A DNA stretch of 64,000 nucleotides from the NCBI GenBank assembly GCA_034520885.1, contig JAXHNE010000005.1, forward strand, positions 77,748 through 141,747, written 5' to 3'. Both the position numbers and the translations under genes were made by a program. Positions 24,071 to 51,856 of the stretch are shown here, piece after piece. This stretch comes from Candidatus Saccharimonadota bacterium (GTDB lineage: Bacteria > Patescibacteriota > Saccharimonadia > Saccharimonadales > JAXHNE01). Each line of letters opens with the position of its first letter. Positions within the stretch are counted from its first letter, which is position 1. A model generated the notes under the pieces. The model was given only the letters and a program-made list of their open reading frames with translations, did no database searches and had not been told where the DNA came from.

Positions 24071-24076
24071 GAGTGC

Positions 24077-36897: not shown

Positions 36898-37164
36898 TTG
36901 ATTTCAGCGGAGAAGAAAAGCAAAGTTGTCAAAGACAACCAACGAAAGAAAGAAGATACCGGAAGCCCGGAAGTGCAAGTCGCGATTTTAACGGAGCGCA
37001 TTACCGAACTGACCGATCATCTAAAGGCCAACAAGCACGATTATATGGCTCGCCGCGGACTATTGCAGGCCGTTGGCAAGCGTAAGCGATTGCTGAAGTA
37101 CCTGGCCCAAGAAGACGGCGAGGCCTACCTAAAGCTAATCAAAAAGCTCGGTATTCGCCGCTAA
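36898..37164 (+). CDS. rpsO: 30S ribosomal protein S15
   Basis: [51 protein letters not shown] start. Confidence 0.95.
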
Positions 37165-37373
37165 ACGTAATTTAACAGAGAACAGATGACAGATTCCAGA
37201 AATTTAACAGAGAACAAGTGCCAAACAACTTTTAAACCGAGTCGTTTGTAGTTTGTAACCCGATAAATTTCTGATCCTTCATCCACCGCCCTTCGCAATA
37301 ATTATTTTTTGCCAGAATCGTTTTTATAAAATATTATAATTTAGAATGAATAAAAACAAGCCAATGGTAAAAA

Positions 37374-37622
37374 TACAATCGAGTGGTTGTAAATTTACAA
37401 TCGGACAATCGGGTCGGGGCAACAGGTGTTACAATCTGTACCCCAGATGAATGGGACAATCCATAAGCGGACATTCATCGCCCCATCGAATAGGACATTG
37501 CCACAGGACAATCATAATATTATATGGCGTACAATGCCTATTGCCAGAGACCGTACAATGATGTGCTACGTATCTTTGCATTGCTGTCGGTCTACTGGTG
37601 GACAATGCGACAGCGGACATTG
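37374..37622 (+). repeat. iteron array: 12 same-orientation copies of (G/T)(G/T)ACA(A/T)T(C/G)
   Basis: GGACAATC, GTACAATG, GGACATTG or TTACAATC at 37374, 37395, 37403, 37429, 37454, 37469, 37493, 37506, 37529, 37553, 37600 and 37615. Confidence 0.8.
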
Positions 37623-37706
37623 CTGTAGCACGGAGTCTACTCGGTCTATGTCGTGGCGCAACAGTTACAACTACTATGAATATGTTGTGATTTTGTTCTT
37701 GTTATG

Positions 37707-37733
37707 TATACGAAGAATAATTTAAAAGGTTAC
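37707..37733 (-). promoter_or_regulatory. cassette promoter, weak variant (CGTATACA)
   Basis: -10 at 37707-37712, -35 GTAACC at 37728-37733, N16. Fires toward the iteron array. Confidence 0.35.
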
Positions 37734-37816
37734 ATTAGTATTGTACAATGATGATTATTAATTATTTTTATTATCTTTGTAACATAAAAAATAATTGTAA
37801 TATAAAATAAGTAATT

Positions 37817-37994
37817 ATGGCAGAATTTAAAATTGGAGACGTCAGTATGTCTCAAGTCAGGTAGTGTTCCATTAACCATTGAAGAGTTATCCAATGGTAT
37901 TGCTCATGTTGTGTGGTTCAACGACAACAAGGAATTAAATAATGTGTATGTTAATGTTAAGACATTGAAGACTTACATTGAACCAAAAGACTAA
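37817..37994 (+). CDS. DUF2158/YodC-like small protein, frame broken by one extra nucleotide
   Basis: MAEFKIGDV then, after removing one nt near 37843, VCLKSGSVPLTIEELSNGIAHVVWFNDNKEL.... The span is 178 nt, not a multiple of 3. Confidence 0.55.
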
Positions 37995-38307
37995 TGAAAA
38001 ACCCAGAGGGTAACCACTCCCTCTGGGCATTACTAACCAATAAACACAATTTGTAAGGGGTCACAAGTCCCTCACGATTTGCCTGTCTAACGAACGACAG
38101 GTCTTTTGAAGTGTCTTTAAAACTGAATCGTTTCGGTATCTGGAATTCAATTGAGAATCCATTTATGACATCACCAACCCTAAAGGTATAGGTTGTATAC
38201 TGTGGCATACGGAGCACTGACCTCTTGGGAATGTATTTCAGTGGGTATAGTACTACATTCAATATCTTCACTGCTACTGGTATACTTTTGGGTTTTGTCC
38301 TTGCCAA
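37957..38307 (-). CDS. hypothetical protein
   Basis: 116-aa ORF. It is in the same frame as 38314-38862, separated only by a TAG at 38314-38316. Confidence 0.35.
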   Translation of the reverse strand: MARTKPKSIPVAVKILNVVLYPLKYIPKRSVLRMPQYTTYTFRVGDVINGFSIEFQIPKRFSFKDTSKDLSFVRQANREGLVTPYKLCLLVSNAQREWLPSGFFISLLVQCKSSMS

Positions 38308-38313
38308 GGAGTT

Positions 38314-38862
38314 CTACAACCCAGAGTTTTTTATTAAAAGTCTTCGGGGCGAACTGACTACCGTACTTATACCTATAGAAGTCCCACCAGTGTTTGTCGT
38401 TAACGCCTTGGTCATCGAATATTGTTGTTTGTATTGCTCTGCAAGGTCTTTGTTATTAATTAAAACATAGAACATTATCAGGTCTTCGACTTTAACCAGA
38501 TGTGGTCTTCCCATGCCTTTGAGGTTATCTGCACTGAGTTTACCCGTGGTATAATACCTTTGCATGGCTTCATGAGTCCCATAACATGTTTTATAGTTCA
38601 GGGCGAGGTATTTCTCGAAGTGGGACATGTCTTGGTCTCTGAGGATATCGCTACGGGTTCTAACGTAACCCACAAGGAATTCATAATTCCTGAAATCCTT
38701 ATCGTGCTCTTTCGTCCTGATGGGATGTTCACAGTCTTCATTATATTCTCTTATGAGTCTGGCATTGCAACCAGCAGCCAGTGCTTTGCGTAGACTTAGT
38801 GTGGCTGCGAGTATATTTGTTTTGGGACTGTCCCAATTGGTATTTATGTCTGTCTCCGTCAT
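38314..38862 (-). CDS. hypothetical phage protein
   Basis: 182-aa ORF preceded by the promoter cassette at 38903-38929. Confidence 0.55.
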   Translation of the reverse strand: MTETDINTNWDSPKTNILAATLSLRKALAAGCNARLIREYNEDCEHPIRTKEHDKDFRNYEFLVGYVRTRSDILRDQDMSHFEKYLALNYKTCYGTHEAMQRYYTTGKLSADNLKGMGRPHLVKVEDLIMFYVLINNKDLAEQYKQQYSMTKALTTNTGGTSIGISTVVSSPRRLLIKNSGL

Positions 38863-38902
38863 TTTTATATTGTGTTTGGTTAATATTCTTCTTGTGTTAT
38901 TA

Positions 38903-38929
38903 TATACGATGACGGCTTCGAAAGGTTAC
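38903..38929 (-). promoter_or_regulatory. cassette promoter GTAAC-N16-CGTATA
   Basis: -10 at 38903-38908, -35 at 38924-38929. Drives 38314-38862. Confidence 0.6.
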
Positions 38930-39107
38930 AGTAGCATCGTACAATGGCATAGTTTAGAATCATTGTAGATAAGCGTACAATGACTGAACTTATTTTAATT
39001 AAAAGAACCCCGTACAATCTCTTGCACGGGGTTCAGGTATTCCCCTCCAATTGTACATTACGTACAATGCTTTAATACGTTTTAGTCTCTTGGGTCTCCA
39101 GTGAACA

Positions 39108-39473
39108 TCATCTGGGGTTTTCAATATCTGTGTCCCAGATTGTCAGGAGTTGCCACTGGTTGTCATCGTTACCAGTCAGCATCTGATGTGCTTGTTTGAG
39201 ACTATACACAGATGAACTGTCTTCCATTAAAGGATGTGTTAGACCTTCCTGTGTAGTGCCGTCTTCACCGAAGACCTGAAAGCCTATTACCTTGGCATCT
39301 TCATTGAGTTCAACTGCTTCAATAACAGCGTGTAGTTGTTCATCACAGCACCATCCCACTTCTTCACCGATTTCTTCTTGGTATTCGTTATTGCGATTGG
39401 GTTTAACCCATGCTTTGACTTCAACATTATCGCTGTTGCAATTCTGGCATACATAAACTGTTTTTGTCATCAT
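39108..39473 (-). CDS. hypothetical phage protein (N-terminal CxxC)
   Basis: 121-aa ORF. Confidence 0.5.
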   Translation of the reverse strand: MMTKTVYVCQNCNSDNVEVKAWVKPNRNNEYQEEIGEEVGWCCDEQLHAVIEAVELNEDAKVIGFQVFGEDGTTQEGLTHPLMEDSSSVYSLKQAHQMLTGNDDNQWQLLTIWDTDIENPR

Positions 39474-39505
39474 AATTTCTATGTGTTTGGGTTAAATGTT
39501 TTTAA

Positions 39506-39668
39506 TTAATATAGTTCTTCATCATCGAAATCGAAATCCATTACTTCGCCCTTTGGGGTTCGAATTCGTCTTCATTGAATCTCATTAGTTCAGTGGTACT
39601 CAGGGATTCCAAGAAGGCACGATTAGTGGCTTCGTATTTGATATCATCACTTTTATACTTAGTGGACA
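39506..39668 (-). CDS. small acidic protein, one frame break
   Basis: MSTKYKSDDIKYEATNRAFLESLSTTELMRFNEDEFEPQ, then shifted to KGEVMDFDFDDEELY. The ATG overlaps the upstream stop (ATGTCCACTAA). Confidence 0.4.
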
Positions 39669-39907
39669 TTATCGGAATCGATTAATGATTCTTTACTGGA
39701 TTTCTTTGTCATAGTTTTAGGTATTAGTGTTACATTCTTATACGATTTCCACTTGGATTTGTTACGATTTATTTCACCAAACATTGTGTTTATTTGTTCC
39801 CTGACGATAATAGCGTCTTCCAGAGTCTTGCGTTCTGCAATACCCAAGGGCATTGTTTCATCATAACCTGTTTCGGTGTCTTCGATTGTTACGTATACTT
39901 TATACAT
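39659..39907 (-). CDS. hypothetical phage protein
   Basis: 82-aa ORF. Confidence 0.5.
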   Translation of the reverse strand: MYKVYVTIEDTETGYDETMPLGIAERKTLEDAIIVREQINTMFGEINRNKSKWKSYKNVTLIPKTMTKKSSKESLIDSDNVH

Positions 39908-39930
39908 GATATCTGTTTTTAATTAAAATC

Positions 39931-40137
39931 TTATTGGTTACCGCATTCATTACAGAACCCGTCATCATCACAACTCTGGAGATGCTGTCCTGATTTCTTG
40001 CATTCCTGAACGTCTTCTGATTCTTCGAAGTCTGCCCACTTGTCTTCTGGCAATGAGTGTTTCAGTACCTCATAAGGTAATCTATTCAGGAGTTCATCCA
40101 GAACCGTCTGGTCGCCATGATAATAGTCGTCCATCAA
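39931..40137 (-). CDS. hypothetical small acidic protein (C-terminal CxxC)
   Basis: 68-aa ORF. Confidence 0.45.
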   Translation of the reverse strand: MMDDYYHGDQTVLDELLNRLPYEVLKHSLPEDKWADFEESEDVQECKKSGQHLQSCDDDGFCNECGNQ

Positions 40138-40531
40138 TTGCCTTTATAACGGCATCAACCAGTTCAATCTTATCTCTGGTATCTGGTTCAGCGTTATCCA
40201 TCTGACAGAACCTCACTTCTTGGACAATGGTGTCATCAGTAAGGCGTATATTCTCAATGACATCGACATTCATTGGGAACAGGTCTTCTACGTCTCCTGT
40301 TTCGGTGTCAATTGTTTGAACACAGAGTTGGTCGTGGTCATCGAGGTCTCTGAGGATGTGTCTCGAGTTGACCAACGGTATCAATGCGTTCACCGTACAT
40401 TGGTACTTGCTGTAGTTGGCATTGCTTTGCGTACATATCTCAAACGCTTCAACGGCTTTCTGTTCACCGTGTGCGCTTAATACATTAAGGATATATTGAA
40501 TATCCATGTGAAGTTGTTTTACTTTTCCCAT
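40094..40531 (-). CDS. hypothetical phage protein
   Basis: 145-aa ORF preceded by the cassette at 40563-40589. Confidence 0.55.
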   Translation of the reverse strand: MGKVKQLHMDIQYILNVLSAHGEQKAVEAFEICTQSNANYSKYQCTVNALIPLVNSRHILRDLDDHDQLCVQTIDTETGDVEDLFPMNVDVIENIRLTDDTIVQEVRFCQMDNAEPDTRDKIELVDAVIKAIDGRLLSWRPDGSG

Positions 40532-40562
40532 TGTGTTATTTTTATTGGTTTGTGTACAATCT

Positions 40563-40589
40563 TATACGAACATTCTCTGTAAAGGTTAC
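40563..40589 (-). promoter_or_regulatory. cassette promoter GTAAC-N16-CGTATA
   Basis: -10 at 40563-40568, -35 at 40584-40589. GTACAAT motif in the leader. Confidence 0.6.
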
Positions 40590-40946
40590 ACCTTATCGGG
40601 GTTTAATACGATTTCAAGGGTCTCAGTAATGAAGTCACATCCACAATCATCACAACTGCTCATTGTATCAGGGAAGTCGTAATCCAGTCTTGTGTTTTGG
40701 CTTCCACAATGTGGACAATCAGCAACTGATTTGATTTTAAGTGGGTCTGAGTTCATTCTGACCACAGATAAGACATTCAGTACAGAAGTGTGGGGTCTTG
40801 GCATCGCAACCCGTACAATGCTTATAACTGACGTTGCTGTTTGGGTGTTCATCCATGTACTGGTTACAATAGGTATAAACAGCCGTTGCTCCTTGTTTTT
40901 CGTAGGATTTCTTTACAGGTCTGTGTAATATGTTTTAACTTTTTCA
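40586..40946 (-). CDS. zinc-ribbon protein, frame broken
   Basis: ATG 40946 follows the cassette. Cys-pair segments HCTGCDAKTPHFCTECLICGQ and CPHCGSQN...CDDCGCDF lie in different frames. Confidence 0.4.
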
Positions 40947-40973
40947 TTGGTTTGTGTTTTTGGTGTACAATCT

Positions 40974-41000
40974 TATACGAATAATATCGATTAGGGTTAC
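40974..41000 (-). promoter_or_regulatory. cassette promoter GTAAC-N16-CGTATA
   Basis: -10 at 40974-40979, -35 at 40995-41000. Confidence 0.6.
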
Positions 41001-41114
41001 AAAGGCGAATAACCATGCGATGATTAACATAGTTATTCACCTTATGTTTTGCGGTGATTAGACATTGACTCCGAGTTCCTGTAAATTGGTACTCAGGATA
41101 AGCATCACCGTGTT

Positions 41115-41555
41115 TCATTTCTCTTTGATACATTCGACATTCATTTGCAATATTGTTGCTGATACCTCGGACAATGGACGCTTGAAATTGTAATAACTGT
41201 ATGTCATTGCATCAGGTTTGCCAACCAATATACATGTCTTCATGCGCTTCTCTAATTTCTTTTGTTCCTTGGCTTTGAGAAAGTCTTCGAACAAAATGTC
41301 AATAGTATTTTCAAGACTGTTTTTAATCTTAAATGTACCATAGTCGATATCAGGTAAGGTCTTGCAATAGGCTTCTGCCTGTGCTATGACTTCATTGTCC
41401 TGTTTTGAGTTTCCTCGATCAGTCTGTGCAACCACCGTGACCATCATTTTTAACGTAGCCGACATTCTTACCACCAATATACAGGTCAGCGACAAAACAG
41501 TTAGTCTCTTCAGACATTCGTTCGCTAAATTCAACTTTTTTAATTCGATTTTCAT
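41115..41555 (-). CDS. hypothetical phage protein
   Basis: 146-aa ORF. Confidence 0.5.
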   Translation of the reverse strand: MKIELKKLNLANECLKRLTVLSLTCILVVRMSATLKMMVTVVAQTDRGNSKQDNEVIAQAEAYCKTLPDIDYGTFKIKNSLENTIDILFEDFLKAKEQKKLEKRMKTCILVGKPDAMTYSYYNFKRPLSEVSATILQMNVECIKEK

Positions 41556-41600
41556 TGTGTTATATTTTATTGGTTTTAATTAAAGTTGTTGTTATCGATT

Positions 41601-41627
41601 AAAAACTGGTTGCTATACCGCAACCAG
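41601..41627 (-). terminator. intrinsic terminator
   Basis: CTGGTTGC-GGTATA-GCAACCAG followed by T5, at the end of the GP88-family gene. Confidence 0.6.
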
Positions 41628-42457
41628 TTCTAATTTTTGTACATTGCTAACATCGGCTTTCAGTTGAGCAGGACTAATAACAAAACAACTGTTTAATACC
41701 TGTTTTTCAACTTGCCTGTTTGCAATACGTTTCCATTTTCAGACCTATTATAATACCATCGGCATCATCAACCCTATAGTCGGTAAGGTCGCCATTTACC
41801 ACGTTATAGCCACTATATTGAGCAGGTAATTCACTTTCTTTTTTGACATCGAATACCGTTGCTACATTGTGACCACGTTCAAGCATTGCTTCACATGAGT
41901 TCCAGTTCCTGCCTGTGTATGAGAGACGTTAAGTGGTAGTTAGGTGCAAGGTTATTGAATTTATTGGCGTTTTTCGTATAGTCGTAAAACTGTACATCAG
42001 GAAATATTTCGAAAATGTTTTGACCGTTAACTCTAACATTTTCCCAGTCGATATCCGAAGTACAATTTAATCTAACTGAAAAGAAATAACCATCTTTTTG
42101 TGCTTTTACCTGTTTTGCTTCGATATCAGCAATAAGCCACTGCATAAAAAATTCAGGTTGTTCATAAAACAATTTAGTTTTTTTGATACGTGCATTTAAG
42201 ATAGTGCATTTACCGCTAAACTCTTCAACGGCAACCCTACCGCTTGTATTTAAGCAACCCATACGGCATTCAGGTGTGCTATGTGAACACGTATTATAAC
42301 CACTTGTTTTGGCGGGTGCAAGGTGTAAGCCGTAGGTATACTGGTTGCTTACCTACCGCTTTTAAGCAGTTTTGCGCTTGCATTGATACTACCTAAATAG
42401 GGATAAACCTGTTTGTCTTTTTGCGTCTGCGATACTCTTAAAATTCATTGCTTTCAT
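41613..42457 (-). CDS. GP88-family phage protein, reading frame interrupted >=4 times
   Basis: Pieces in three frames read MKAMNFKSIADAKRQTGLS / YLGSINASAKLLKSG / VSNQYTYGLHLAPAKTSGYNTCSHSTPECRMGCLNTSGR... / EAMLERGHNVATVFD...VNGDLTDYRVDD. Confidence 0.6.
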
Positions 42458-42483
42458 TGTGTTATGGTTTTGGTTATGGTTAT

Positions 42484-42510
42484 TATACGAAAATAAGTTG
42501 TAATAGTTAC
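42484..42510 (-). promoter_or_regulatory. cassette promoter GTAAC-N16-CGTATAAT
   Basis: Drives the GP88-family gene (ATG 42457). Confidence 0.6.
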
Positions 42511-42576
42511 ATCTTAATTAAAATCTTTTTGGTTATTTACAATTTATTTTCGTGTGTGTCTGTGTGTGATAGTTAT

Positions 42577-42603
42577 TATACGAAAATAAGGTGTGAAAGT
42601 TAC
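42577..42603 (-). promoter_or_regulatory. cassette promoter GTAAC-N16-CGTATAAT, tandem to the previous
   Basis: No ORF before the next promoter, about 95 bp downstream. Confidence 0.5.
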
Positions 42604-42612
42604 GACCTGTGC

Positions 42613-42695
42613 TTATTTAGAACGGTTCTAAACTCAGAGTATCGGGTAGGGTTGCGATTACCGCACTGAGGTTATACCCTCCGTTGTTGTCTTAT
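42613..42695 (-). ncRNA. promoter-driven small RNA candidate, copy 1
   Basis: About 80 nt between a cassette promoter and the hairpin TTTAGAA-CCG-TTCTAAA. No ORF. Homologous to copy 2. Confidence 0.5.
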
Positions 42696-42701
42696 ACTTA
42701 T

Positions 42702-42728
42702 TATACGAAATAAATTAAAAAAGGTTAC
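42702..42728 (-). promoter_or_regulatory. cassette promoter driving small RNA copy 1
   Basis: -35 lies in the 3' arm of the hairpin AAGGTTGCG-AAAAA-CGTAACCTT. Confidence 0.6.
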
Positions 42729-42756
42729 GTTTTTCGCAACCTTTTTTAATTAAAAT

Positions 42757-43068
42757 CTAAACTTCTAATTCAAATACGCATTCCAGCATCAACTCAATTT
42801 CTTCACCCTCTGTTATCCATTTGTCGATTTGTTTCATGGTATAGCCATAAGCCATACAAGCATCAAGGATTTCACGATAACTGTAATCATCGTAGTCCAT
42901 TTCCTGCTCAAATACTTCGGTTTCCCCTGTTAAGGGGTCGATACAACGGTCTTCACGAAAAGCATATGTTTTGTCTTCAATGATTTCTTTTCGCATTTGG
43001 TTACAACTGGGGTCAGTTACTACCCAACCGTCTTGTTCCAGTTTTTTGATTTCGTCTTTTGTTGTCAT
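42757..43068 (-). CDS. hypothetical small acidic protein
   Basis: 103 aa with its own cassette and terminator. Confidence 0.55.
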   Translation of the reverse strand: MTTKDEIKKLEQDGWVVTDPSCNQMRKEIIEDKTYAFREDRCIDPLTGETEVFEQEMDYDDYSYREILDACMAYGYTMKQIDKWITEGEEIELMLECVFELEV

Positions 43069-43093
43069 TGCTTTGTGTTTTGGTTATAGTTAT

Positions 43094-43121
43094 TATACGT
43101 AAAAACCCCTGCAAAGGTTAC
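43094..43121 (-). promoter_or_regulatory. cassette promoter GTAAC-N17-CGTATAAT
   Basis: -35 lies in the loop of the CCCCTG/CAGGGG terminator hairpin. Confidence 0.65.
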
Positions 43122-43149
43122 ACTTCACAGGGGTTTTAATTAAAATCTT

Positions 43150-43365
43150 TTACTTAATCATTGGAATGTAATTCATTACTTCCAGTACTGCGTCTTCATC
43201 TTCCTCTGAAAGGTCAACGCTGAATACGTCTTCTGACTTGTCACAGGGTTGAACATCAAATTGCCAATCACTGTTTTTATCCTGCAACCATTTCTGAATT
43301 TCTTTTGCTGCTTCGAGCGGACTATCCGCATCGACTTCGATTTCCAATACTACTCTGTTTGTCAT
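43150..43365 (-). CDS. hypothetical small acidic protein
   Basis: 71 aa with its own cassette. Confidence 0.55.
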   Translation of the reverse strand: MTNRVVLEIEVDADSPLEAAKEIQKWLQDKNSDWQFDVQPCDKSEDVFSVDLSEEDEDAVLEVMNYIPMIK

Positions 43366-43393
43366 AATTTTTGTGTGTTTTGGTTATAGTTAT

Positions 43394-43420
43394 TATACGA
43401 TATTAATTAAAAAAGGTTAC
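43394..43420 (-). promoter_or_regulatory. cassette promoter GTAAC-N16-CGTATAAT
   Basis: Drives 43150-43365. Confidence 0.65.
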
Positions 43421-43427
43421 GTTTTAA

Positions 43428-43459
43428 ATAAAAAAACCCCCGTGTAACCAGCACGGGGG
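43428..43459 (-). terminator. intrinsic terminator
   Basis: CCCCCGTG-CTGGTTA-CACGGGGG followed by T7. Confidence 0.8.
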
Positions 43460-43504
43460 CATAACCCATAACCATAAATCACAATCAAATATTTTAAATT
43501 TCGT

Positions 43505-43825
43505 CTACAACGGCTCGGAAACCACCTTCATCTTCTCTATACATTTGGAGTTTGGGTGAAAAACTCTTACAAGATGACCGTTTATTTGTGTGTAGTATCC
43601 GAAGTAACTACCGTCTGTTAGAATATCGGTTTTATTTTTCTTTAAATACGTTATAAAATCTTCTTCTTTGTCTCCAAGTGGATAACCAGTTTCGTGTTCG
43701 ACTTTCAATTCGCTGAACGGAATTGTTCTCGGACTCAGATTCTTTGTGGTTTTGGTTATCCTGATAGCGAATCTACCAAAGGGTTCTAACTTGAATTCCT
43801 GTGATTTTGTTAATGTGATTTCCAT
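43505..43825 (-). CDS. hypothetical phage protein
   Basis: 106 aa with its own cassette and a strong terminator. Confidence 0.55.
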   Translation of the reverse strand: MEITLTKSQEFKLEPFGRFAIRITKTTKNLSPRTIPFSELKVEHETGYPLGDKEEDFITYLKKNKTDILTDGSYFGYYTQINGHLVRVFHPNSKCIEKMKVVSEPL

Positions 43826-43850
43826 CGCTTTGTGTTTTGGTTATAGTTAT

Positions 43851-43877
43851 TATACGAATAATTTCAGTCAGGGTTAC
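43851..43877 (-). promoter_or_regulatory. cassette promoter GTAAC-N16-CGTATAAT
   Basis: Drives 43505-43825. Confidence 0.65.
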
Positions 43878-43923
43878 ACACCCATGAGTTTTAATTTTTG
43901 ACCTGAATTAAATGGGTCATAAA

Positions 43924-44082
43924 TTACAGGTCTTTGTCATCATCGAAGTTCTGTTCTAAGTATGAACTATCAATAGTAAACATTCCACCTGATTGCTCAT
44001 GCTTAAAAACGGACATTGATACTTCTGCCTTTGTGTCGGGGTCTGTTACTGTGATTTCCTGTACGAATTTTGCTGTGTTCAT
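43924..44082 (-). CDS. hypothetical small protein
   Basis: 52 aa (MNTAKFVQEITVTDPDTKAEV...). Below the ORF-track cutoff. Confidence 0.4.
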   Translation of the reverse strand: MNTAKFVQEITVTDPDTKAEVSMSVFKHEQSGGMFTIDSSYLEQNFDDDKDL

Positions 44083-44104
44083 TGCTTTGTGTTTTAATTA
44101 AAAC

Positions 44105-44353
44105 TTAACTATGATAATCAATTCCATCGGTATTCATACCTGTACAATCGGCTTTCTTTTCATAGTCCAGAAGAAATGACCAATGCATTGCAGGTAGTTC
44201 TTCATCATTCTGTGCTTTGAAATAATCAGGCACGGAATAATAGGTTGTTTCTTCACACTCTACAATTTCTTCGTAGGTGCTTGATTGGTCGATACCATTA
44301 CCTGTTTCGGTTGGCACGACTGCTACTCTTAAATCTCTTAAGTCTGGGTTCAT
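44105..44353 (-). CDS. hypothetical small acidic protein
   Basis: 82 aa with its own cassette. Confidence 0.55.
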   Translation of the reverse strand: MNPDLRDLRVAVVPTETGNGIDQSSTYEEIVECEETTYYSVPDYFKAQNDEELPAMHWSFLLDYEKKADCTGMNTDGIDYHS

Positions 44354-44379
44354 TGCTTTGTGTTTTGGTTATAGTTATT

Positions 44380-44406
44380 ATACGAAAAAACCCCTGAAAG
44401 GTTACG
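44380..44406 (-). promoter_or_regulatory. cassette promoter GTAAC-N16-CGTATAAT
   Basis: -35 lies inside the CCCCTG/CAGGGG hairpin (44392-44418). Confidence 0.65.
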
Positions 44407-44431
44407 TTATTCAGGGGTTTTAATTAAAATC

Positions 44432-44709
44432 TTATCTTCTTTCGTAGTACAGTTTCCTGATTTTCCATAAATGGTCTTCGGTGTAATCTTTACCCATTAC
44501 CTTATTATAGAATTTCAGAGCAGGAAGTAAATCATTGACGTTCTTCTCGCCTTCGTAGTCTGTGAACCCATCTGAACTAAACGTATAGTCCAGAATATCA
44601 ACTGCTGCAAGTAGACAAGCCACAACAAGCAGGTCATAAGGTTTACGTGCTGTCTTACAGAAATTCCAACGGCTGTCTTCATTGATTCTGTCAATGAAAA
44701 ATGTTTCAT
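44432..44709 (-). CDS. hypothetical protein, one frame break
   Basis: ORFs 44515-44709 and 44432-44623 overlap in different frames. ATG 44709 lies 3 nt after the upstream stop. Confidence 0.4.
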
Positions 44710-44712
44710 GGT

Positions 44713-44973
44713 CTAAATCACGTTCGGCATTCCCATTAAACCAGACCGCATCTGCTGTGAATTCGGGTTCGTTATCTCCCTGACCACCTCGGATTTCGAG
44801 AGGGTCATCTGAACAATAACCACCTGCTGTATCTGTGGTTTTGGGTAGTTCGCCATGTAATTTTCTACATGCTTTTGAGAATTCCTTAAAGTCTTCTTTA
44901 GTATTCTCGGCTTTTGGTATCCAATAATGTGTGTATCCGATAATTGTAACGCCCTTTTGGGGTCGCCCTCCAT
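44713..44973 (-). CDS. hypothetical phage protein
   Basis: 86 aa with its own cassette. Confidence 0.5.
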   Translation of the reverse strand: MEGDPKRALQLSDTHIIGYQKPRILKKTLRNSQKHVENYMANYPKPQIQQVVIVQMTLSKSEVVREITNPNSQQMRSGLMGMPNVI

Positions 44974-45006
44974 TTTTTGGTTAATAATTTGGTTTCTTAT
45001 ACTTAT

Positions 45007-45034
45007 TATACGATATTAATTAAAAAAAGGTTAC
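45007..45034 (-). promoter_or_regulatory. cassette promoter GTAAC-N17-CGTATAAT
   Basis: Drives 44713-44973. Confidence 0.6.
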
Positions 45035-45071
45035 GTTATTCATGGGTTTTTTTAATTAAAATCTTTGTACA

Positions 45072-45275
45072 TTAGTCTTCATCCTCTTCATTATTTGTAA
45101 TCTCAATATCATCATCATCAATTGCACTAACGAAGATTTGTGGTTGTTCATCACTAAACCTTTGCTGTAAAACTGTGTTGATTTCTTCAAGCATATCTAA
45201 TGCCGTGTGTTTGTCTGCTCCATCATCGAAACTATCAAACTGAATTTGAATGTTTTTTACGATTATTGATTTCAT
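45072..45275 (-). CDS. hypothetical small, very acidic protein
   Basis: 67 aa ending in NNEEDED, with its own cassette. Confidence 0.55.
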   Translation of the reverse strand: MKSIIVKNIQIQFDSFDDGADKHTALDMLEEINTVLQQRFSDEQPQIFVSAIDDDDIEITNNEEDED

Positions 45276-45300
45276 TGTGTTTGGTTTTGGTTATAGTTAT

Positions 45301-45327
45301 TATACGTGTTTTAATTAAAAAGGTTAC
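45301..45327 (-). promoter_or_regulatory. cassette promoter GTAAC-N16-CGTATAAT
   Basis: The upstream gene's stop codon lies inside the -35 (ACG TAA CC). Confidence 0.65.
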
Positions 45328-45630
45328 GTTTTTAACCTGATTTGATTTTCATAAATAAAACCCTCATCATTCTCATTGTCGTAAAACTCCAAATCGTTAG
45401 CCACAAATACAGGAATATTACCATGCCAATCGTAAACTGGTGAGGCTTTGCAGTATGTTCTGGTCACCCTTACAATAACAATTGGATAGGGTTTATGTCT
45501 TGCGCCATTGTCGGGATGAATCGTTCTGACATCCAGAACCTCACCCTCACGCCATTCGTTAAGGTTCTCATTTCTGGGGTTGTTGATTAACACCTCAACG
45601 ACATCACCCTTTATAATTTTTTAGTTTCAT
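45324..45630 (-). CDS. hypothetical protein, frame break near the start
   Basis: ATG 45630 gives MKLKNYKG, then an extra G, then DVVEVLINNPRNENLNEW.... Confidence 0.45.
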
Positions 45631-45655
45631 TGTGTTTGGTTTTGGTTATAGTTAT

Positions 45656-45682
45656 TATACGAAAAAACCCTGCAAAGGTTAC
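45656..45682 (-). promoter_or_regulatory. cassette promoter GTAAC-N16-CGTATAAT
   Basis: -35 lies in the CCCTG/CAGGG hairpin. Confidence 0.65.
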
Positions 45683-45800
45683 AGGGTTTTTAATTAAAAT
45701 CTATATATTATTCTCATATTATTTTATCTATAGTGTGTCTTAGGGCGAACCTTTGTTTAGCGTTTCCATCGTTTACGGTTTTAATTAAAATCTCTATACA

Positions 45801-46007
45801 TTAGTCTTCTCTGACTTCGACATTATCTGCATCGACTTCGAATGCTTCTCCGCATTGGTCTTCGACAATCACCGTGCCACGGGATTCCAGAATACCATCT
45901 TTTACAATGATTCCGACAAAACTGTGATTATGCATATCACTTTTTCTGGGTGCTCCGACTTCAACTGTTTGGAATTCTTCGAGTAGTGTGCCTGTTTTTT
46001 CTAACAT
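45801..46007 (-). CDS. hypothetical small protein
   Basis: 68 aa. Confidence 0.5.
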   Translation of the reverse strand: MLEKTGTLLEEFQTVEVGAPRKSDMHNHSFVGIIVKDGILESRGTVIVEDQCGEAFEVDADNVEVRED

Positions 46008-46025
46008 GATTTTTGGTTTTAATGA

Positions 46026-46238
46026 TTATACGATATAGAACATTGTTGTTTCAGTGAATTGTTCACTAACTACGATTTTTGTCAGACCCACATTTTCGTT
46101 TTCCACTGGTGAAATGAAGCCATTTTCTGCCCTATCACTTAACGCTGATAAAGTGTTTTCAACAACTTCTTTAATCTCTTCGTCATCAGTGATTTTGTTG
46201 TCGAATTCAAGACTAACTACTAATTGAATTGTTTTCAT
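46026..46238 (-). CDS. hypothetical small acidic protein
   Basis: 70 aa. Confidence 0.5.
   Translation of the reverse strand: MKTIQLVVSLEFDNKITDDEEIKEVVENTLSALSDRAENGFISPVENENVGLTKIVVSEQFTETTMFYIV
46027..46052 (-). promoter_or_regulatory. cassette promoter variant GAAAC-N15-CGTATAAT
   Basis: The -10 overlaps the upstream stop (ATC GTA TAA). Confidence 0.45.
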
Positions 46239-46264
46239 GATTTCTGTGTTTTGGTTATAGTTAT

Positions 46265-46291
46265 TATACGAACAATATCTGAAAAGGTTTC
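46265..46291 (-). promoter_or_regulatory. cassette promoter variant GAAACC-N16-CGTATAAT
   Basis: Drives 46026-46238. Confidence 0.55.
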
Positions 46292-46365
46292 AGTTTATGG
46301 ACATTATATCAATAAAAAACCCCACAATATTGTTGCAGGGTTTTGTTTAGGACATTGTGTTGTTG

Positions 46366-47250
46366 TTAATCCTCAACTCTTTTGATGATGAACAATAACG
46401 TCTTTACCCTTGTATCTTTGTAGGGAAACTTAACCACAATCTCATAACCTGCATTGCTGTTAACTAAAAAGTTAACCAAGTCATTTGTTACTTCTGCCCC
46501 AGTTGGTTCTTTACCAGCATAACAGTTTTTGATATACTTATTACTATAACTGTTCATGCGGAGCGAATGATTTAAAACCCTGTCATTTTCTGATAGTGTT
46601 AAGGTAATGTACCCACCTTTTTTAACTAAATTGCGTTTCATCACATCATTGATTTCATCATAAAAAGTGTCGATGAAACCGCAGTAATCCAAAATAGCAC
46701 TACTATATGTGTCTTCGGCATCATTCACAATATGTTCACCAACGGTTTTGTTACGTAGTGGAAATAACTGAATCAAATAACTTGTCATTAGCCGTCAGAT
46801 TCCTAACCATTTCCTTATAGGTTTCTTTGTCACGTTCAACCGCAGTGAATTTATAACCACTTTTTTGTTTGAGGATGTTTTTCTCCATTATCCATTCAGC
46901 AGCAGGTAAGGTCAGGATATTACTACTTTGCCGTTTGGTTAACATAATTGATTCAGCAATTAATTGCCTTGCCTTATCTTTGGCTTTTCCATGATAATTA
47001 CTAAAAGTGTTTTTTGCTTCTTTTAACACGTTTTACTGGCTTCTTAGGTGCTTTTTTGGTTGTTGTCCCGTTTGCGGAATTAAGTGCTCTGGCTATCGCA
47101 TTTACTTGCCTAAATGAAGGCAAACCAAGAAGTTCAGCCAATTCGTTGTTGTCCATACTATCATAGTTTTCAATAATAGTATCAATCATTTTAGTTGTTC
47201 TGCCGTCAGTTAATTTAACGCCTTTGTACTTTTCAATTGTCTGTTGTCAT
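46366..47250 (-). CDS. ~295-aa protein in >=4 frame pieces (weak methyltransferase-like resemblance)
   Basis: ORFs 47001-47189, 46751-47029 and 46366-46788 overlap end to end. ATG 47250 follows the cassette. Confidence 0.35.
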
Positions 47251-47297
47251 GGTGTTTGTGATTTTGGTTAAACAATTTGTTTGTTGGTTATGGTTAT

Positions 47298-47324
47298 TAT
47301 ACGACACACACACGCAAAGGTTAC
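47298..47324 (-). promoter_or_regulatory. cassette promoter GTAAC-N16-CGTATAAT
   Basis: Drives the gene starting at 47250. Confidence 0.6.
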
Positions 47325-47356
47325 ACTATATGAAATATAATTTTAATTAAAACGAG

Positions 47357-47438
47357 TTATTTAGAACCATTCTAAACTCAGGATATAAGGTAGGGTCGGA
47401 TTACCGCACTGAGATTTTACTCTCCGTTGTTGTTGTTA
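47357..47438 (-). ncRNA. promoter-driven small RNA candidate, copy 2
   Basis: Shares CTCAGTGCGGTAATC, CCCTACC and CTGAGTTTAGAA. Helix GAGA/TCTC here corresponds to GAGG/CCTC in copy 1. Confidence 0.5.
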
Positions 47439-47444
47439 TACTTA

Positions 47445-47471
47445 TTATACGCAGAAATAAAAAAAAGGTTA
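47445..47471 (-). promoter_or_regulatory. cassette promoter driving small RNA copy 2
   Basis: -35 lies in the hairpin GGTTGCA-GAAA-TGTAACC. Confidence 0.6.
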
Positions 47472-47508
47472 CATTTCTGCAACCCTTTTTTAATTAAAAT
47501 CTTAATTC

Positions 47509-47838
47509 TTAATATGCTCTTGACGGCATTCTCTGGTTCTGTTCGTAACTCTGGCTCTCCCATTCGCTGTCGGGATTAGTGAGTTCAAAGAAATACTTGC
47601 GCAGTTGTTCAGCGATTTCATCGAGTTCCTTACAAACGCTTTCTTCAACGAATGACTGGTTGGCTCTAACTGTGTCGCTACTGCATACTCTGCCCAGCAT
47701 TCCACCACCTAAGTAGTTTTGATACGCTGACATTTTCTCGCCTTCAAAACCCAGTGTGTCGAGACTGATTTCAATTCCACCACCACGACCACCGATTTCC
47801 TGTCTTAATACGATTTCTTCAAAGTTAATGGTTTCCAT
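47509..47838 (-). CDS. hypothetical phage protein
   Basis: 109 aa with its own cassette. Confidence 0.55.
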   Translation of the reverse strand: METINFEEIVLRQEIGGRGGGIEISLDTLGFEGEKMSAYQNYLGGGMLGRVCSSDTVRANQSFVEESVCKELDEIAEQLRKYFFELTNPDSEWESQSYEQNQRMPSRAY

Positions 47839-47864
47839 TGTGTTAATGTTTTGGTTATAGTTAT

Positions 47865-47891
47865 TATACGTGTTTTAATTAAAAAGGTTAC
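47865..47891 (-). promoter_or_regulatory. cassette promoter GTAAC-N16-CGTATAAT
   Basis: Drives 47509-47838. Confidence 0.65.
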
Positions 47892-47892
47892 G

Positions 47893-48036
47893 TTAATTAA
47901 GACGTATTTCAAATATGTTTTCATTGCTGATAAACAAATACTTTGGATTGGTTTTGGCTTTGTACTCCCTAACATCTTCTTGTGTTGGCGGGTGACCTAA
48001 CATCTTTTCGAGTTTCTTAAATTCATAGAGGTTCAT
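47893..48036 (-). CDS. hypothetical small protein
   Basis: 47 aa, MNLYEFKKLEKMLGHPPTQEDVREY.... Confidence 0.35.
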   Translation of the reverse strand: MNLYEFKKLEKMLGHPPTQEDVREYKAKTNPKYLFISNENIFEIRLN

Positions 48037-48096
48037 GTCTTTAGTATTTTAATTACTTATACGTAAATACTCTGAAAACATTGAATTCTGAAATGG

Positions 48097-48124
48097 AAAA
48101 ACCCCCGTGTAACCAGCACGGGGG
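48097..48124 (-). terminator. intrinsic terminator (same hairpin as 43437-43459)
   Basis: CCCCCGTG-CTGGTTA-CACGGGGG followed by T5. Confidence 0.75.
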
Positions 48125-48169
48125 CAACCATGAATTAACTAAAACGACTACTAACTATGAATAATATTT

Positions 48170-48358
48170 TTATCTATTTGTAAACTCTTCCCACAACGCA
48201 TCGGGGTCAATTTCCTGTGTCAGGTCGCCACCTGTTCTTAATATGATGAACTTGGCGAAGTTAATGCGTTTAGTTGCTTCATCTCCATTTGTGTGAGATA
48301 TTATCTCCTGTGCGTCACTGAGGTGCGACATTACTACCATGCTTGCTTTCATTATCAT
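48170..48358 (-). CDS. hypothetical small protein
   Basis: 62 aa with its own cassette and a strong terminator. Confidence 0.5.
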   Translation of the reverse strand: MIMKASMVVMSHLSDAQEIISHTNGDEATKRINFAKFIILRTGGDLTQEIDPDALWEEFTNR

Positions 48359-48384
48359 TGCTTTGTGGTTTTGGTTATAGTTAT

Positions 48385-48411
48385 TATACGGATTCAGATT
48401 AAAAAGGTTAC
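48385..48411 (-). promoter_or_regulatory. cassette promoter GTAAC-N16-CGTATAAT
   Basis: Drives 48170-48358. Confidence 0.65.
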
Positions 48412-48412
48412 A

Positions 48413-48678
48413 CTACATCCAACCTTTTTTGAAATTGGTTTTCTCTTCTATCCAGTCCATTATTTTTTCTGCGTAATAGTATGAAGTCAGTTCTTCGAGA
48501 AATCTCTTATTTGACTTACTACGCCATATTCTTCAGTTGTTGTTGTTCCTTGTTTTACAACTTCTTTGGTGTTGTAGTCCAGTGCCTTTATCTGAATTAC
48601 TTTTACCTTTTATATCAATTCGGATAATTCCACCTATTGCGTATTCTCCGATTTTAAAACTCTTTGTCGCTTGTGCCA
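48413..48678 (-). CDS. hypothetical protein, frame broken
   Basis: MAQATKSFKIGEYAIGGIIRIDIKGK ... RFLEELTSYYYAEKIMDWIEEKTNFKKGWM. Confidence 0.4.
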
Positions 48679-48704
48679 TTGCTCTGTGGTTTTGGTTATA
48701 GTTA

Positions 48705-48731
48705 TTATACGTACATTAGTTAAAAAGGTTA
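48705..48731 (-). promoter_or_regulatory. cassette promoter GTAAC-N16-CGTATAAT
   Basis: Drives the gene starting at 48678. Confidence 0.65.
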
Positions 48732-48733
48732 CA

Positions 48734-48955
48734 CTACATCCAACCCTGTTCAATTATAACAGGTTTTCTCTTGTAATTAAAACCCCAGACTTCTCTCCAT
48801 TCACCCCACTCTCCACGTCTTGAACGAAATACAGTCACCTGCTTATCGGGTGCTTGTTCAATGAGTTCAGATAGTCTTGATTTCAATTCCGCATAGGTCG
48901 GAAACGGTTTCCATTCCTTGCCTACTACTGCTGTGGGTTTTGTCATTCGTGCCAT
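48734..48955 (-). CDS. hypothetical small protein
   Basis: 73 aa, ending in GWM like its neighbour. Confidence 0.5.
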   Translation of the reverse strand: MARMTKPTAVVGKEWKPFPTYAELKSRLSELIEQAPDKQVTVFRSRRGEWGEWREVWGFNYKRKPVIIEQGWM

Positions 48956-48982
48956 TGCTTTGTGGTTATTGGTTATAGTTAT

Positions 48983-49009
48983 TATACGTGTTTTAATTAA
49001 AAAGGTTAC
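48983..49009 (-). promoter_or_regulatory. cassette promoter GTAAC-N16-CGTATAAT
   Basis: Drives 48734-48955. Confidence 0.65.
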
Positions 49010-49010
49010 A

Positions 49011-49252
49011 TTAAACGTAATGATAATGCCACGCTAAAAAACCCTGCCTGTCCATATAAAACGCTGTAACATGATAATGATATTTGTCTTTACTGAATAA
49101 ATTGGTTCTAATATATTCTAAGGCATTTTCCACGGATTCAACCCTGTCGCTTTGCCGTCATCACCAGTCCAGTGTGAATTATTCTGAGTTAAGACCAAAT
49201 ATTTATTGGTTCTTGTGCTACGAATTGCGACCTTATGATACTTTGCTGTCAT
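49011..49252 (-). CDS. hypothetical protein, one frame break
   Basis: MTAKYHKVAIRSTRTNKYLVLTQNNSHWTGDDGKATG, then shifted to ESVENALEYIRTNLFSKDKYHYHVTAFYMDRQGF. Confidence 0.4.
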
Positions 49253-49264
49253 GGTACATTGTGG

Positions 49265-49450
49265 TTATTGGTTTTGAATATCATCAACAATCTTTTGTTG
49301 TATCTTTATTGCCCTGCATATAGCGAAGAACGGCATACCTTTGAGTTTCTTCATTTTATGAAGTTCAGATAGGACATTAACAGCGGTTTCGAGTTTATTA
49401 CCACTTGCTTTTGCAATAGTCAGTGTCGATATTATTGCGGTTGCGTTCAT
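49265..49450 (-). CDS. hypothetical small protein
   Basis: 61 aa from ATG 49450, just after the cassette. The ORF-track start at 49537 reads through the promoter. Confidence 0.45.
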   Translation of the reverse strand: MNATAIISTLTIAKASGNKLETAVNVLSELHKMKKLKGMPFFAICRAIKIQQKIVDDIQNQ

Positions 49451-49477
49451 GGTACATTGTGTTTTGGTTATAGTTAT

Positions 49478-49505
49478 TATACGTATAAATACAAAAAAAG
49501 GTTGC
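49478..49505 (-). promoter_or_regulatory. cassette promoter variant GCAACC-N17-CGTATAAT
   Basis: Drives the gene starting at 49450. Confidence 0.5.
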
Positions 49506-49543
49506 GTTTTACACAACCTTTTTTTAATTAAAATCATTTCTTT

Positions 49544-49878
49544 TTACACGTGACCACCAGACTTTACGGTTTCCATTACATCTGCTAGAGTTCTGGACAA
49601 TGGTTCGAAGTGCATATCTCTCTCAATACCCAAACCGAACATACCCCTAAAATCCTTCAACTCCTGCATTGATACAGTACCACATTCAGCATCTTCGGGA
49701 TAACCCAATGTTGCAAAACACATATAAACATCATCATCGAGTTTTTCGTACAAATACCATGTGCTTGCACCTGCGGGATAAAAGATTTCATGACAATTTT
49801 AATATCCTTTGCGGACTTCTGACTTGTGTCGCCTTGCTTTGCAAATGCTTTTTCGATTTCTTTGGTTATTAGTTTCAT
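49544..49878 (-). CDS. DUF2958-family protein, one frame break
   Basis: MKLITKEIEKAFAKQGDTS...KIVMKSF, then shifted to WYLYEKLDDDVYMCFATLGYPEDAECGTVSMQELKDFRGMFGLGIERDMHFEP. Confidence 0.6.
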
Positions 49879-49904
49879 TGTGTTTATGTTTTCGTTATAG
49901 TTCT

Positions 49905-49931
49905 TATACGGTTTTAATTAAAAAAGGTTAC
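49905..49931 (-). promoter_or_regulatory. cassette promoter GTAAC-N16-CGTATAAG
   Basis: Drives the DUF2958 gene. Confidence 0.6.
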
Positions 49932-50377
49932 ATTATTCGCTCATTTCTCCAATATATTGAAACATTCCCAATAAGGTGACAAAATATATGATTTCCCCAT
50001 GTAAAATATAATCCGAGGTTAACGCCATTATGAATAAGAGGTTTTGTGATTTTCTCAATCTCAAACATACCGATATTTGGAAAACTTTTCGTTTTTCCTT
50101 TCCCCTCATTAATTAAATGAAGTAAAACATCTTTGGCGTTATTAAAATCGGGTGTTGTTTTGGTTTCTTTTCCATAACAACCAACACTATATCTAAGAGT
50201 ATAACCCATTTTATTAACATCACCACGGGGCGAAGCCAATTCTTTTGCATCACAAAGAAAATCAACACCATCAAATCTATCAATGGTTATATAATGCACA
50301 TCATTTAACTCACTGAAAGTAATTACACCTTTGTTAATTAAATCTGAATGTTTGGTTTTAAAATATTCTAATGTCAT
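49928..50377 (-). CDS. hypothetical phage protein
   Basis: 149 aa with its own cassette. Confidence 0.55.
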   Translation of the reverse strand: MTLEYFKTKHSDLINKGVITFSELNDVHYITIDRFDGVDFLCDAKELASPRGDVNKMGYTLRYSVGCYGKETKTTPDFNNAKDVLLHLINEGKGKTKSFPNIGMFEIEKITKPLIHNGVNLGLYFTWGNHIFCHLIGNVSIYWRNERIM

Positions 50378-50402
50378 GGTTTTGCGTTTTGGTTATACTT
50401 AT

Positions 50403-50429
50403 TGTACGTATTTTAATTAAAAAGGTTAC
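50403..50429 (-). promoter_or_regulatory. cassette promoter variant GTAAC-N16-CGTACAAT
   Basis: Drives 49928-50377. Confidence 0.55.
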
Positions 50430-50493
50430 GTTTTATGGACATTATTTTAATTAAAACCATGAACATTATCACCCTGTTATTATGGACATTGCC

Positions 50494-51176
50494 CTATGCT
50501 GTTTGGCGAAGGCTTTGCAGTTGTTCCCTCAACTTGGTTTTACACCTGTTTATAGTTGCTTTAACTGTTCCCAAAGGTATATCAAGTGCAGCACATATTT
50601 CTTCATGACTTAATTTCCTTAAAAAGAACATTGTGGCAATCTTTCTTTGTTTCGCTGAAAGACTACGAAACGCCTCGGCTATGTTTTTACGACTTTCCTC
50701 GGACATCATGTTATCATCGGCTTGTATTGACGTTTGTTGCTCAAACATTGGCTTACCTTTATCATCGACATAATCATCGGTATTCAAATAACGGTCTGCG
50801 TGTTCGGTTCTATGATGGTCAATAACAACGTTTTTCGCAATATGGTATAACCACGTATTGAGTTTAGCAACATTAACATCATAGTTCTGTAAATGCTTTA
50901 TACATTTTCTAAAAACCTCACTTGTTAAATCTTCGGCAACCTCGGTTTCTCCCCTCCAACTCTCGGCAATATGTAGTAAAATATCTGCTTGTTATACTTT
51001 GTGTATATCTCGCTTATCTCATTTTCTTTTGTGCCGTTTTTCGCAATGTTCCAACTCTGACGTAAACAAGTGCTAAACATTTCCATTGTCCTGACTTCCT
51101 GAGCCTTATAGAATTTCCATGCTCTTCTCATTATCAATGACTTGTTGTAGTTGGCTACCAATTTTCTGTTTTTCAT
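50494..51176 (-). CDS. ECF-type (group 4) sigma-70 family factor, frame broken at a C4 run (50951-50954)
   Basis: Region 2 reads EIYTKYNKQIFYYILPRVGG / ETEVAEDLTSEVFRKCIKHLQNYD...LNTWLYHIAKNVVIDHHR. Region 4 reads LSAKQRKIATMFFLRKLSHEEICAALDIPLGTVKATINRCKTKLR. Confidence 0.7.
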
Positions 51177-51319
51177 AGCATATAAAATTAATGGTTAATA
51201 ATTGTGTCGCTTTGTTATTTCTACGCAGGGTTACAAAAAATGTTTCGTTTTTCAAGTTTTTTTTGTTATTTATAATGATTAAAAATAACAAGTGGATGCG
51301 AAAATAAATGCGATTCACT

Positions 51320-51346
51320 ATAACTTTTTTAATTAATCCACGTACA
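51320..51346 (+). promoter_or_regulatory. plus-strand cassette variant ATAAC-N16-CGTACA
   Basis: Leader TCTATAACCAACACACACACGACC, then ATG 51375. Confidence 0.5.
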
Positions 51347-51374
51347 CATATCTATAACCAACACACACACGACC

Positions 51375-51775
51375 ATGACAGCCGAAACCCTAAGTAATAA
51401 AAAGATAGTTGAACACATTAAATATGGTAATGGCACAAAAACAGTTTGCGTTTCGACTTGCTTAAACTATTTGGGTATTGCTCCAGACCAATACAGATAC
51501 ACTTCATCAAATAGAAATATGACCGCTTATATTAATGTATTTGAGAAAAACAGGTTATGCAGTTAGAAGCCGAATAACGAGAGTTTAAGGTAAAGAAATA
51601 TAATACCACCATGACAGCACTAAAAGCCGAAATTAAACGGTCAAAATACACTAAAACAGACTTATTTATTGTTAGTGGAGTGCAACAAAAATCTGCACAC
51701 CTTATGATATTAAACGGTAACGGAGAAACTGTAATAGATACCGCACCCAAAAGAAATGGCGCATACGTGCTGTAA
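51375..51775 (+). CDS. hypothetical protein, frame broken
   Basis: MTAETLSNKKIVEHIKYGNGTKTVCVSTCLNYLGI... continues in other frames to ...NGNGETVIDTAPKRNGAYVL. Confidence 0.4.
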
Positions 51776-51829
51776 ATCAAGTATTTAAGAATTAATTTGT
51801 AAAATAAATGAAAATAAATACGAATTAAT

Positions 51830-51856
51830 GTAACTATTTTCATTTATCCACGTAAT
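51830..51856 (+). promoter_or_regulatory. plus-strand cassette GTAAC-N16-CGTAATAAT
   Basis: Drives the ATG at 51907. Confidence 0.55.

Follow-up and report, generated by a model that had tools for sequence, protein, structure and literature searches.

In the Escherichia coli rpsO-pnp operon, PNPase autoregulation is mediated by the hairpin of the pnp leader, a target of RNase III cleavage. Prophages of the lambda/P4 type usually integrate at tRNA or tmRNA genes. The combination of rIIA and rIIB genes, a sigma factor of the phage's own and a very large genome is the profile of large virulent phages. Finally, chimeric contigs that bring together parts of different genomes are a known class of misassembly in metagenome assemblies and MAGs.

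The locus described here was compared with each of these systems. It lies in a stretch of 64,000 nucleotides (hereafter the window) within a 145,094-bp contig of the GenBank 'Candidatus Saccharibacteria bacterium' MAG, whose locus tags begin with U5L95_. A sequence-only reading of the window had reported an abrupt junction just after rpsO, and this was borne out by a step in GC content (~0.50 over positions 1-37275 versus 0.365 over 37276-64000) and by alignment to an independent contig. We attribute the junction, with a probability of about 0.85, to an assembly misjoin between an accurate bacterial part and a poorly polished, low-abundance phage part. The features of the locus are listed in Table 1.

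Table 1. Features of the window on both sides of the junction, in window coordinates.
Feature	Position	Strand	Remarks
rpsO (ribosomal protein S15, 88 aa), last intact Saccharimonadales gene	36898..37164	+	Pfam PF00312, E 1.7e-32; MDZ7785959.1
Truncated 5' part of the native rpsO-pnp leader	37165..37275	+	100% identical to L001 2458-2568
Breakpoint (probable chimeric join)	37275..37276	.	...AAATTTCTGAT then CCTTCATCCACCGCCC...; L001 identity ends at 37275, L084 homology from or next to 37276
Fragment of an uncultured large phage, early-gene region, low-accuracy consensus	37276..64000	.	Collinear with L084 and L086
Eleven same-strand KKACAWT heptamers (7 are GGACAWT)	37395..37621	+	Phage non-coding DNA, 227 bp
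Junction-proximal phage gene	38116..38862	-	245-250 aa in relatives; MDZ7785960.1, U5L95_02455
GP88-family gene (PF17338)	41616..42457	-	275-280 aa in relatives; broken over three frames here
Promoter-like GTAAC-N15-17-CGTATAAT, sixteen copies	42482..49009	-	Upstream of small early genes
Phage sigma-70-family factor, regions 2 and 4 (PHROG 1740/1190)	50497..51011	-	N-terminus in other frame
Promoter-like GTAAC-N15-17-CGTATAAT, two more copies	62248 and 62738	+	Motif scan

The bacterial side and the native rpsO-pnp locus

The left half of the window carries bacterial housekeeping genes, namely fpg, holA, rpsT, the gene of a DHH protein, truB, the genes of an ABC-F ATPase and of a 109-aa protein, and rpsO. 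When genomes were scanned with S15, this side was assigned to Saccharimonadales, the best S15 identity being 81%. An exact look-up of the S15 protein returned a single contig, L001 (6,530 bp), from the Logan assembly of run SRR26473340, a run for which no paper was found. The S15 proteins of L001 and the window are identical, and positions 1-2568 of L001 are 100% identical to window positions 34708-37275 (2,568 bp), where the identity stops. The gene order of L001 is ABC-F, 109-aa gene, rpsO, pnp, a 75-aa gene and the uracil-DNA glycosylase (UDG) gene, with pnp beginning 250 bp after rpsO. The absence of pnp from the window, pointed out in the sequence-only reading, was confirmed. That reading had also proposed looking at whether relatives keep rpsO and pnp together. 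They do so in 76 of the 76 related loci with enough downstream sequence to judge.

The native rpsO-pnp spacer (L001 2455-2710), which includes …GATAAATTTCTGATACCTGCTATCTGCAGG…, folds to -76.8 kcal/mol (z -6.06) and forms a long hairpin of unusual stability. Window positions 37162-37275 are the 5' part of this spacer, and the breakpoint is located at nucleotide 114 of 256, inside the long hairpin, whose inner arms are found at 37197-37230 and 37240-37273. The 16-nt direct repeat AATTTAACAGAGAACA, which the sequence-only reading had noted, is present at 37169-37184 and 37201-37216, where its copies form the 5' strands of two stacked helices in the folded leader. Because both copies also occur in the uninterrupted L001 (at 2462 and 2494), the repeat is a native element of the leader hairpin and is unrelated to the junction.

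With its structured leader, the native locus conforms to the standard rpsO-pnp operon. In L001, pnp lies directly downstream of rpsO behind that leader; the window shows neither the gene nor the complete leader. The L001 locus resembles its E. coli counterpart in the succession of rpsO, a 250-nt spacer with a stable hairpin (z -6.1) and pnp, although the two leaders share no sequence similarity and an Rfam scan gave no match for the Saccharimonadales leader. This leader may be a counterpart of the RNase III-processed leader of E. coli.

Some other features of the bacterial half may be mentioned. S20 (31024-31467, minus strand) has a long Lys/Ala-rich C-terminal extension, for a total of 147 aa, and the DHH-family protein (31733-33784, plus strand) ends in a Pro/Gln/Ser-rich low-complexity tail of ~450 aa. 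The position of both is conserved in Saccharimonadales relatives. Within this half of 0.50 GC, the GC content dips to ~0.43 at 23000-25500 and at 27000-28000.

Position of the junction and change of character

Alignment to L001 set the breakpoint at 37275|37276. At this point the window reads …AAATTTCTGAT|CCTTCATCCACCGCCC… and the native locus …AAATTTCTGAT|ACCTGCTATCTGCAGG…. The sharp change described in the sequence-only reading is thus real, but its placement at ~37,300-37,320 is not, since the true breakpoint lies 25-45 bp further left. Likewise, the C-rich word CCTTCATCCACCGCCC, which had been assigned to the style of the left half, in fact makes up the first 16 nt of the phage side (37276-37291) and aligns with CCCCACACCCA-CGCCC of the phage relative L084. 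Neither an N run nor an adapter was found at 37275|37276. Comparison of the host, window and L084 sequences revealed at most 3 nt of microhomology at the join, and no shared repeat or k-mer that might explain a false path is visible there.

The switches in regulatory style that had been described at the junction were all reproduced. The promoter-like motif GTAAC-N15-17-CGTATAAT has no copy on the left and 18 on the right. The AT-only palindrome TTTTAATTAAAA occurs 19 times in the right half and never in the left, and PacI sites number 32 and one, respectively. Left-half genes are preceded by TATACT/TACACT 6-8 nt upstream of the ATG, or by GGAGG, whereas right-half genes have short C/A-rich leaders without SD. 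In the right half, the full arrangement of a promoter-like element is GTAACC(T-rich)-N-CGTATAAT, followed by a C/A-rich, SD-less leader of ~22 nt. Such leaders hint at a host lineage that would not rely on SD, for instance one within the Bacteroidota.

A phage fragment on the right side

The right half comes from the genome of a large, uncultured, virulent-type phage, because it is collinear with phage relatives, belongs to a lineage with rIIA and rIIB, and encodes phage domains. The fragment accounts for 26.7 kb of the window (36.5% GC) and extends to the window end. It contains many small ORFs, mostly on the minus strand, and few long ones. The domains recognized were GP88, a sigma-70-family factor, Lar, DUF2958 and DUF2227, and domain searches found no bacterial housekeeping genes in this half. 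Between 53000 and 64000 there are almost no ORFs of at least 90 aa and no family matches; this part is probably the same low-accuracy phage consensus.

The organization of the fragment is similar to that of the early region in large virulent phages, T4-like ones among them, with small acidic ORFs on the same strand, each behind a near-identical motif of the -35/-10 type. As in T4-like phages, a sigma factor is encoded and, in the relatives, an rIIA-like gene and rIIB are adjacent. Unlike in T4-like phages, GTAACC serves as the -35-like element and leaders are SD-less and rich in C and A; moreover, the fragment is distant from every cultured phage.

Neither half of the window had a DNA-level match in 50,697 phage records (megablast, blastn), and the sole outcome of single-protein searches of IMG/VR was a distant relative with 27% identity, located on a 222-kb contig. 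A 29-mer of the right-hand junction had no exact match in viral, genome or metagenome collections, and a 24-mer conserved with L084 had none in metagenome or viral collections. The junction-proximal protein has 58 homologues of 205-270 aa, most of them ~250 aa long, from many metagenomes. Its one 100% match is MDZ7785960.1 of the U5L95 MAG itself, and besides this entry no protein was more than 89% identical in a collection of 5.8 billion proteins. The bacterial proteins beside the junction are present in Logan.

The closest relative of the junction-proximal protein (P0002, 89% identity) is encoded on L084, an Illumina-style contig of 16,385 bp. Collinearity of L084 with the window extends over positions 37287-48241 (running 48241→37287) at 77-87% nucleotide identity, and L084 carries the same intergenic repeats. 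L086, within a 229,048-bp contig, is collinear with positions 38113-44414. The more distant relatives, L086 among them, are pure phage contigs. In other samples, too, the phage lineage has 36-38% GC and maintains the promoter and leader style peculiar to it. Of each relative, ~20 kb was examined, and no structural genes were found within it.

In L086, L090 and L091, a spacer comes after the homologue of the junction-proximal gene, and then an rIIA-like gene (766-768 aa) and rIIB (PF26926); the breakpoint is therefore internal to the phage genome. Accordingly, the possibility that position 37276 is a phage genome terminus was ruled out, as relatives continue into more phage genes; L088 also has further phage genes beyond its junction-proximal homologue. 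The rIIA/rIIB pair and the very large genome that point to a virulent lineage are seen in the relatives only, as the fragment in the window stops earlier. The rIIA-like protein is only ~25% identical to its counterparts in cultured phages.

The KKACAWT array of the window occupies the spacer which, in relatives, lies ahead of the rIIA-like gene. It is largely conserved in L084 and L085 and could be a putative iteron-like or regulator-binding array. L084 continues for 79 nt past the junction-equivalent point, and this DNA is unrelated to the bacterial spacer. L084 and L085, two assemblies of the closest phage relative, both end shortly after that point (79 and 15 nt past it, ~37197-37260 in window terms). 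They are low-coverage contigs, probably from the same sample, and their ends may reflect a hard-to-assemble or repeat-bounded spot in the phage lineage. A homologue of the junction-proximal protein, P0051, was considered as a second link to Saccharibacteria and was rejected, its 10,060-bp contig being pure phage with rIIA and rIIB.

Accuracy of the consensus on the two sides

A frame test of the right half was performed with the intact genes of L084 as reference, 11 genes being aligned pairwise. In 4,961 aligned coding nucleotides, 25 non-triplet gaps were found, which corresponds to ~5 frame-breaking indels per kb. Most of these gaps (21 of 25) span a single nucleotide, and about half of the 25 change the length of short base runs; a few adjacent gaps summing to three may be real codon indels. 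The coding sequence is spread over two or three frames in the GP88 gene and in genes of 288, 119 and 142 aa, and other right-half genes contain short out-of-frame stretches bounded by compensating shifts. The junction-proximal ORF is cut to 182 aa (38314-38862) by an out-and-back frameshift, the GP88 gene has an additional shift of this type near its 5' end, and the frameshift of the sigma-factor gene occurs at a G run near 50950. Four to five independent relatives have uninterrupted versions of the GP88 and junction-proximal genes. As a control, the same test was applied to the left half with ORFs from six Saccharimonadales relatives: none of the 33 queries was split across frames, and there was no difference from L001 in 2,568 bp. 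The claim that frame-breaking indels go from none to frequent at the junction was thus verified.

Substitutions relative to L084 are distributed over codon positions 1, 2 and 3 as 152, 127 and 391, with 58% at the third position. This distribution indicates that the right-half genes diverged under purifying selection. Because such selection coexists with so many frame-breaking indels, consensus error is the best explanation for the state of the right half.

The abundance of frameshifts and truncated genes on the right, together with the lack of long ORFs at 53-64 kb, would also fit a decaying prophage remnant, in which the sequence is accurate and the frameshifts represent real pseudogenisation of an old insertion. 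This is highly improbable. The excess of third-position substitutions speaks against pseudogenes, and the indels have accumulated with neither a matching level of neutral substitution nor a shift of GC content toward that of the host. In addition, the promoter motifs are near-perfect in 18 copies, many of the indels are changes of ±1 nt in short base runs, which is a signature of sequencing error, and the existence of an uninterrupted native allele of 100% identity argues against an old insertion.

Low ORF coverage under the standard code could also be expected if an error-free phage sequence used an alternative genetic code or programmed frameshifting, an explanation that has next to no chance of being correct. 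None of five schemes of stop reassignment restored long ORFs beyond the trivial effect of TAA in AT-rich DNA, and in close relatives these genes can be read through without interruption in the standard code. Recoding is excluded because all three stop codons (TAA, TAG and TGA) are found among the interrupting stops, which fall in short out-of-frame stretches, where homology is lost and then regained.

Consensus error being the preferred explanation, its onset exactly at the join means that the two sides differ in read support. Read support was judged here by proxy, through a consensus error rate that rises from 0 to ~5 indels per kb at the join. A local loss of quality in a nanopore consensus could also stem from modified bases in phage DNA.

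Origin of the junction

In all probability, the junction does not reflect any biological feature. The uninterrupted arrangement of the left flank exists elsewhere, in L001 and in all of the related loci that could be judged. The displaced continuation was found in the same MAG, on a separate 10,993-bp contig that carries an identical PNPase (MDZ7786563), the 75-aa protein (U5L95_05660) and UDG (MDZ7786566), a finding that would be equally expected if a long real insert or prophage had broken the assembly. The two sides are also unrelated, with Saccharimonadales on one side and a large-phage lineage on the other, and with promoter, palindrome and leader styles that are confined to one of them. 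These are traits of known inter-genome misassemblies: a blunt join of unrelated taxa, a step in GC content, regulatory signals and accuracy at one base, a native arrangement that can be recovered elsewhere, and a displaced flank on another contig of the bin. Of the two possibilities offered by the sequence-only reading, the evidence supports the joining of unrelated sequences and gives no support to a chromosome bordered by the end of a phage or prophage.

In the proposed scenario, an accurately assembled stretch of Saccharimonadales chromosome would have been connected, in the middle of the rpsO-pnp leader, to an internal point of an unrelated phage fragment. The phage part would be a poorly polished consensus, presumably derived from low-coverage long reads. 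The step in accuracy would then be a step in coverage or polishing, and the differing read support would mean that the two parts come from different molecules. The join itself might have been caused by a chimeric read or a spurious graph path, and the true continuation of the chromosome (pnp, the 75-aa protein and UDG) would have been left on the 10,993-bp contig.

We also considered a genuine insertion, in which a phage or part of one would have integrated between rpsO and pnp in this strain or in a subpopulation, the assembler failing across the element. The join is part of a deposited contig without an N gap, it falls in an intergenic spacer, and the presence of pnp on a separate contig would agree with a long insert. 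Furthermore, L001 may come from a strain or sample lacking the insertion, and alone it does not exclude one in the MAG strain. The native allele nevertheless exists at 100% identity, and the join cuts the pnp leader hairpin and parts pnp from rpsO, whose order is kept in every related locus judged. An integrated element should share the read depth and accuracy of its host, but accuracy collapses exactly at the join, and the two sides are separated by 13 points of GC content and by different initiation signals. In view of these observations, a genuine insertion is very unlikely.

The comparison with lambda/P4-type integration leads in the same direction. The locus resembles such integrations in that phage DNA stands beside a conserved chromosomal gene, in intergenic DNA. 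Unlike them, it has no integrase, tRNA or att core, and no second junction lies within the window. No integrase, recombinase or transposase domain (Pfam/PHROG) was found in the 126 right-half ORFs of at least 62 aa (37.3-64 kb), a tRNA scan found no tRNA, and no integrase or recombinase is encoded beside the junction-equivalent site in relatives. For the att core, the host sequence ...TTTCTGAT|ACCTGC was compared with ...AAGTATG|CCCCACAC of L084, and at most 3 nt are common to both, with attP taken from this ~80%-identical relative. These searches agree with the sequence-only reading, in which no integrase, tRNA or att-like repeat had been seen at the junction. The phage lineage also has a virulent profile, as it possesses rIIA/rIIB and a sigma factor of its own and one relative reaches a contig size of at least 229 kb, and sequence quality differs across the join, both unlike lambda/P4-type integration. 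If an insertion were real, phage DNA of the rIIA side would be expected before ACCTGCTATCTG.

A real join would mean that DNA of a large virulent-type rIIA/rIIB phage had entered the rpsO-pnp leader of a Saccharibacteria (CPR) chromosome, either through illegitimate recombination or along some unknown route of integration, with modification of the phage DNA then accounting for the poor consensus. An ultra-small episymbiotic bacterium would thereby be connected for the first time, as host, with a jumbo-type phage. We regard this combination of events as very unlikely.

Consequences for the deposited record

With an assembly misjoin as the preferred explanation, the junction is biologically ordinary and its value is that of a contamination flag for the U5L95 MAG. 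This GenBank Saccharibacteria MAG has at least 26.7 kb of foreign phage DNA. Such contigs can yield false CPR phage-host links, false claims of horizontal transfer and spurious protein families. The join is crossed by consecutive NCBI accessions of the 145,094-bp contig, MDZ7785957 (ABC-F), MDZ7785958 (U5L95_02445), MDZ7785959 (S15), MDZ7785960 (U5L95_02455) and MDZ7785961 (U5L95_02460). Some 40 hypothetical proteins from this phage DNA, truncated by errors, bear the label Candidatus Saccharibacteria, among them MDZ7785960-61, MDZ7785963, MDZ7785986, MDZ7785993 and MDZ7785997.
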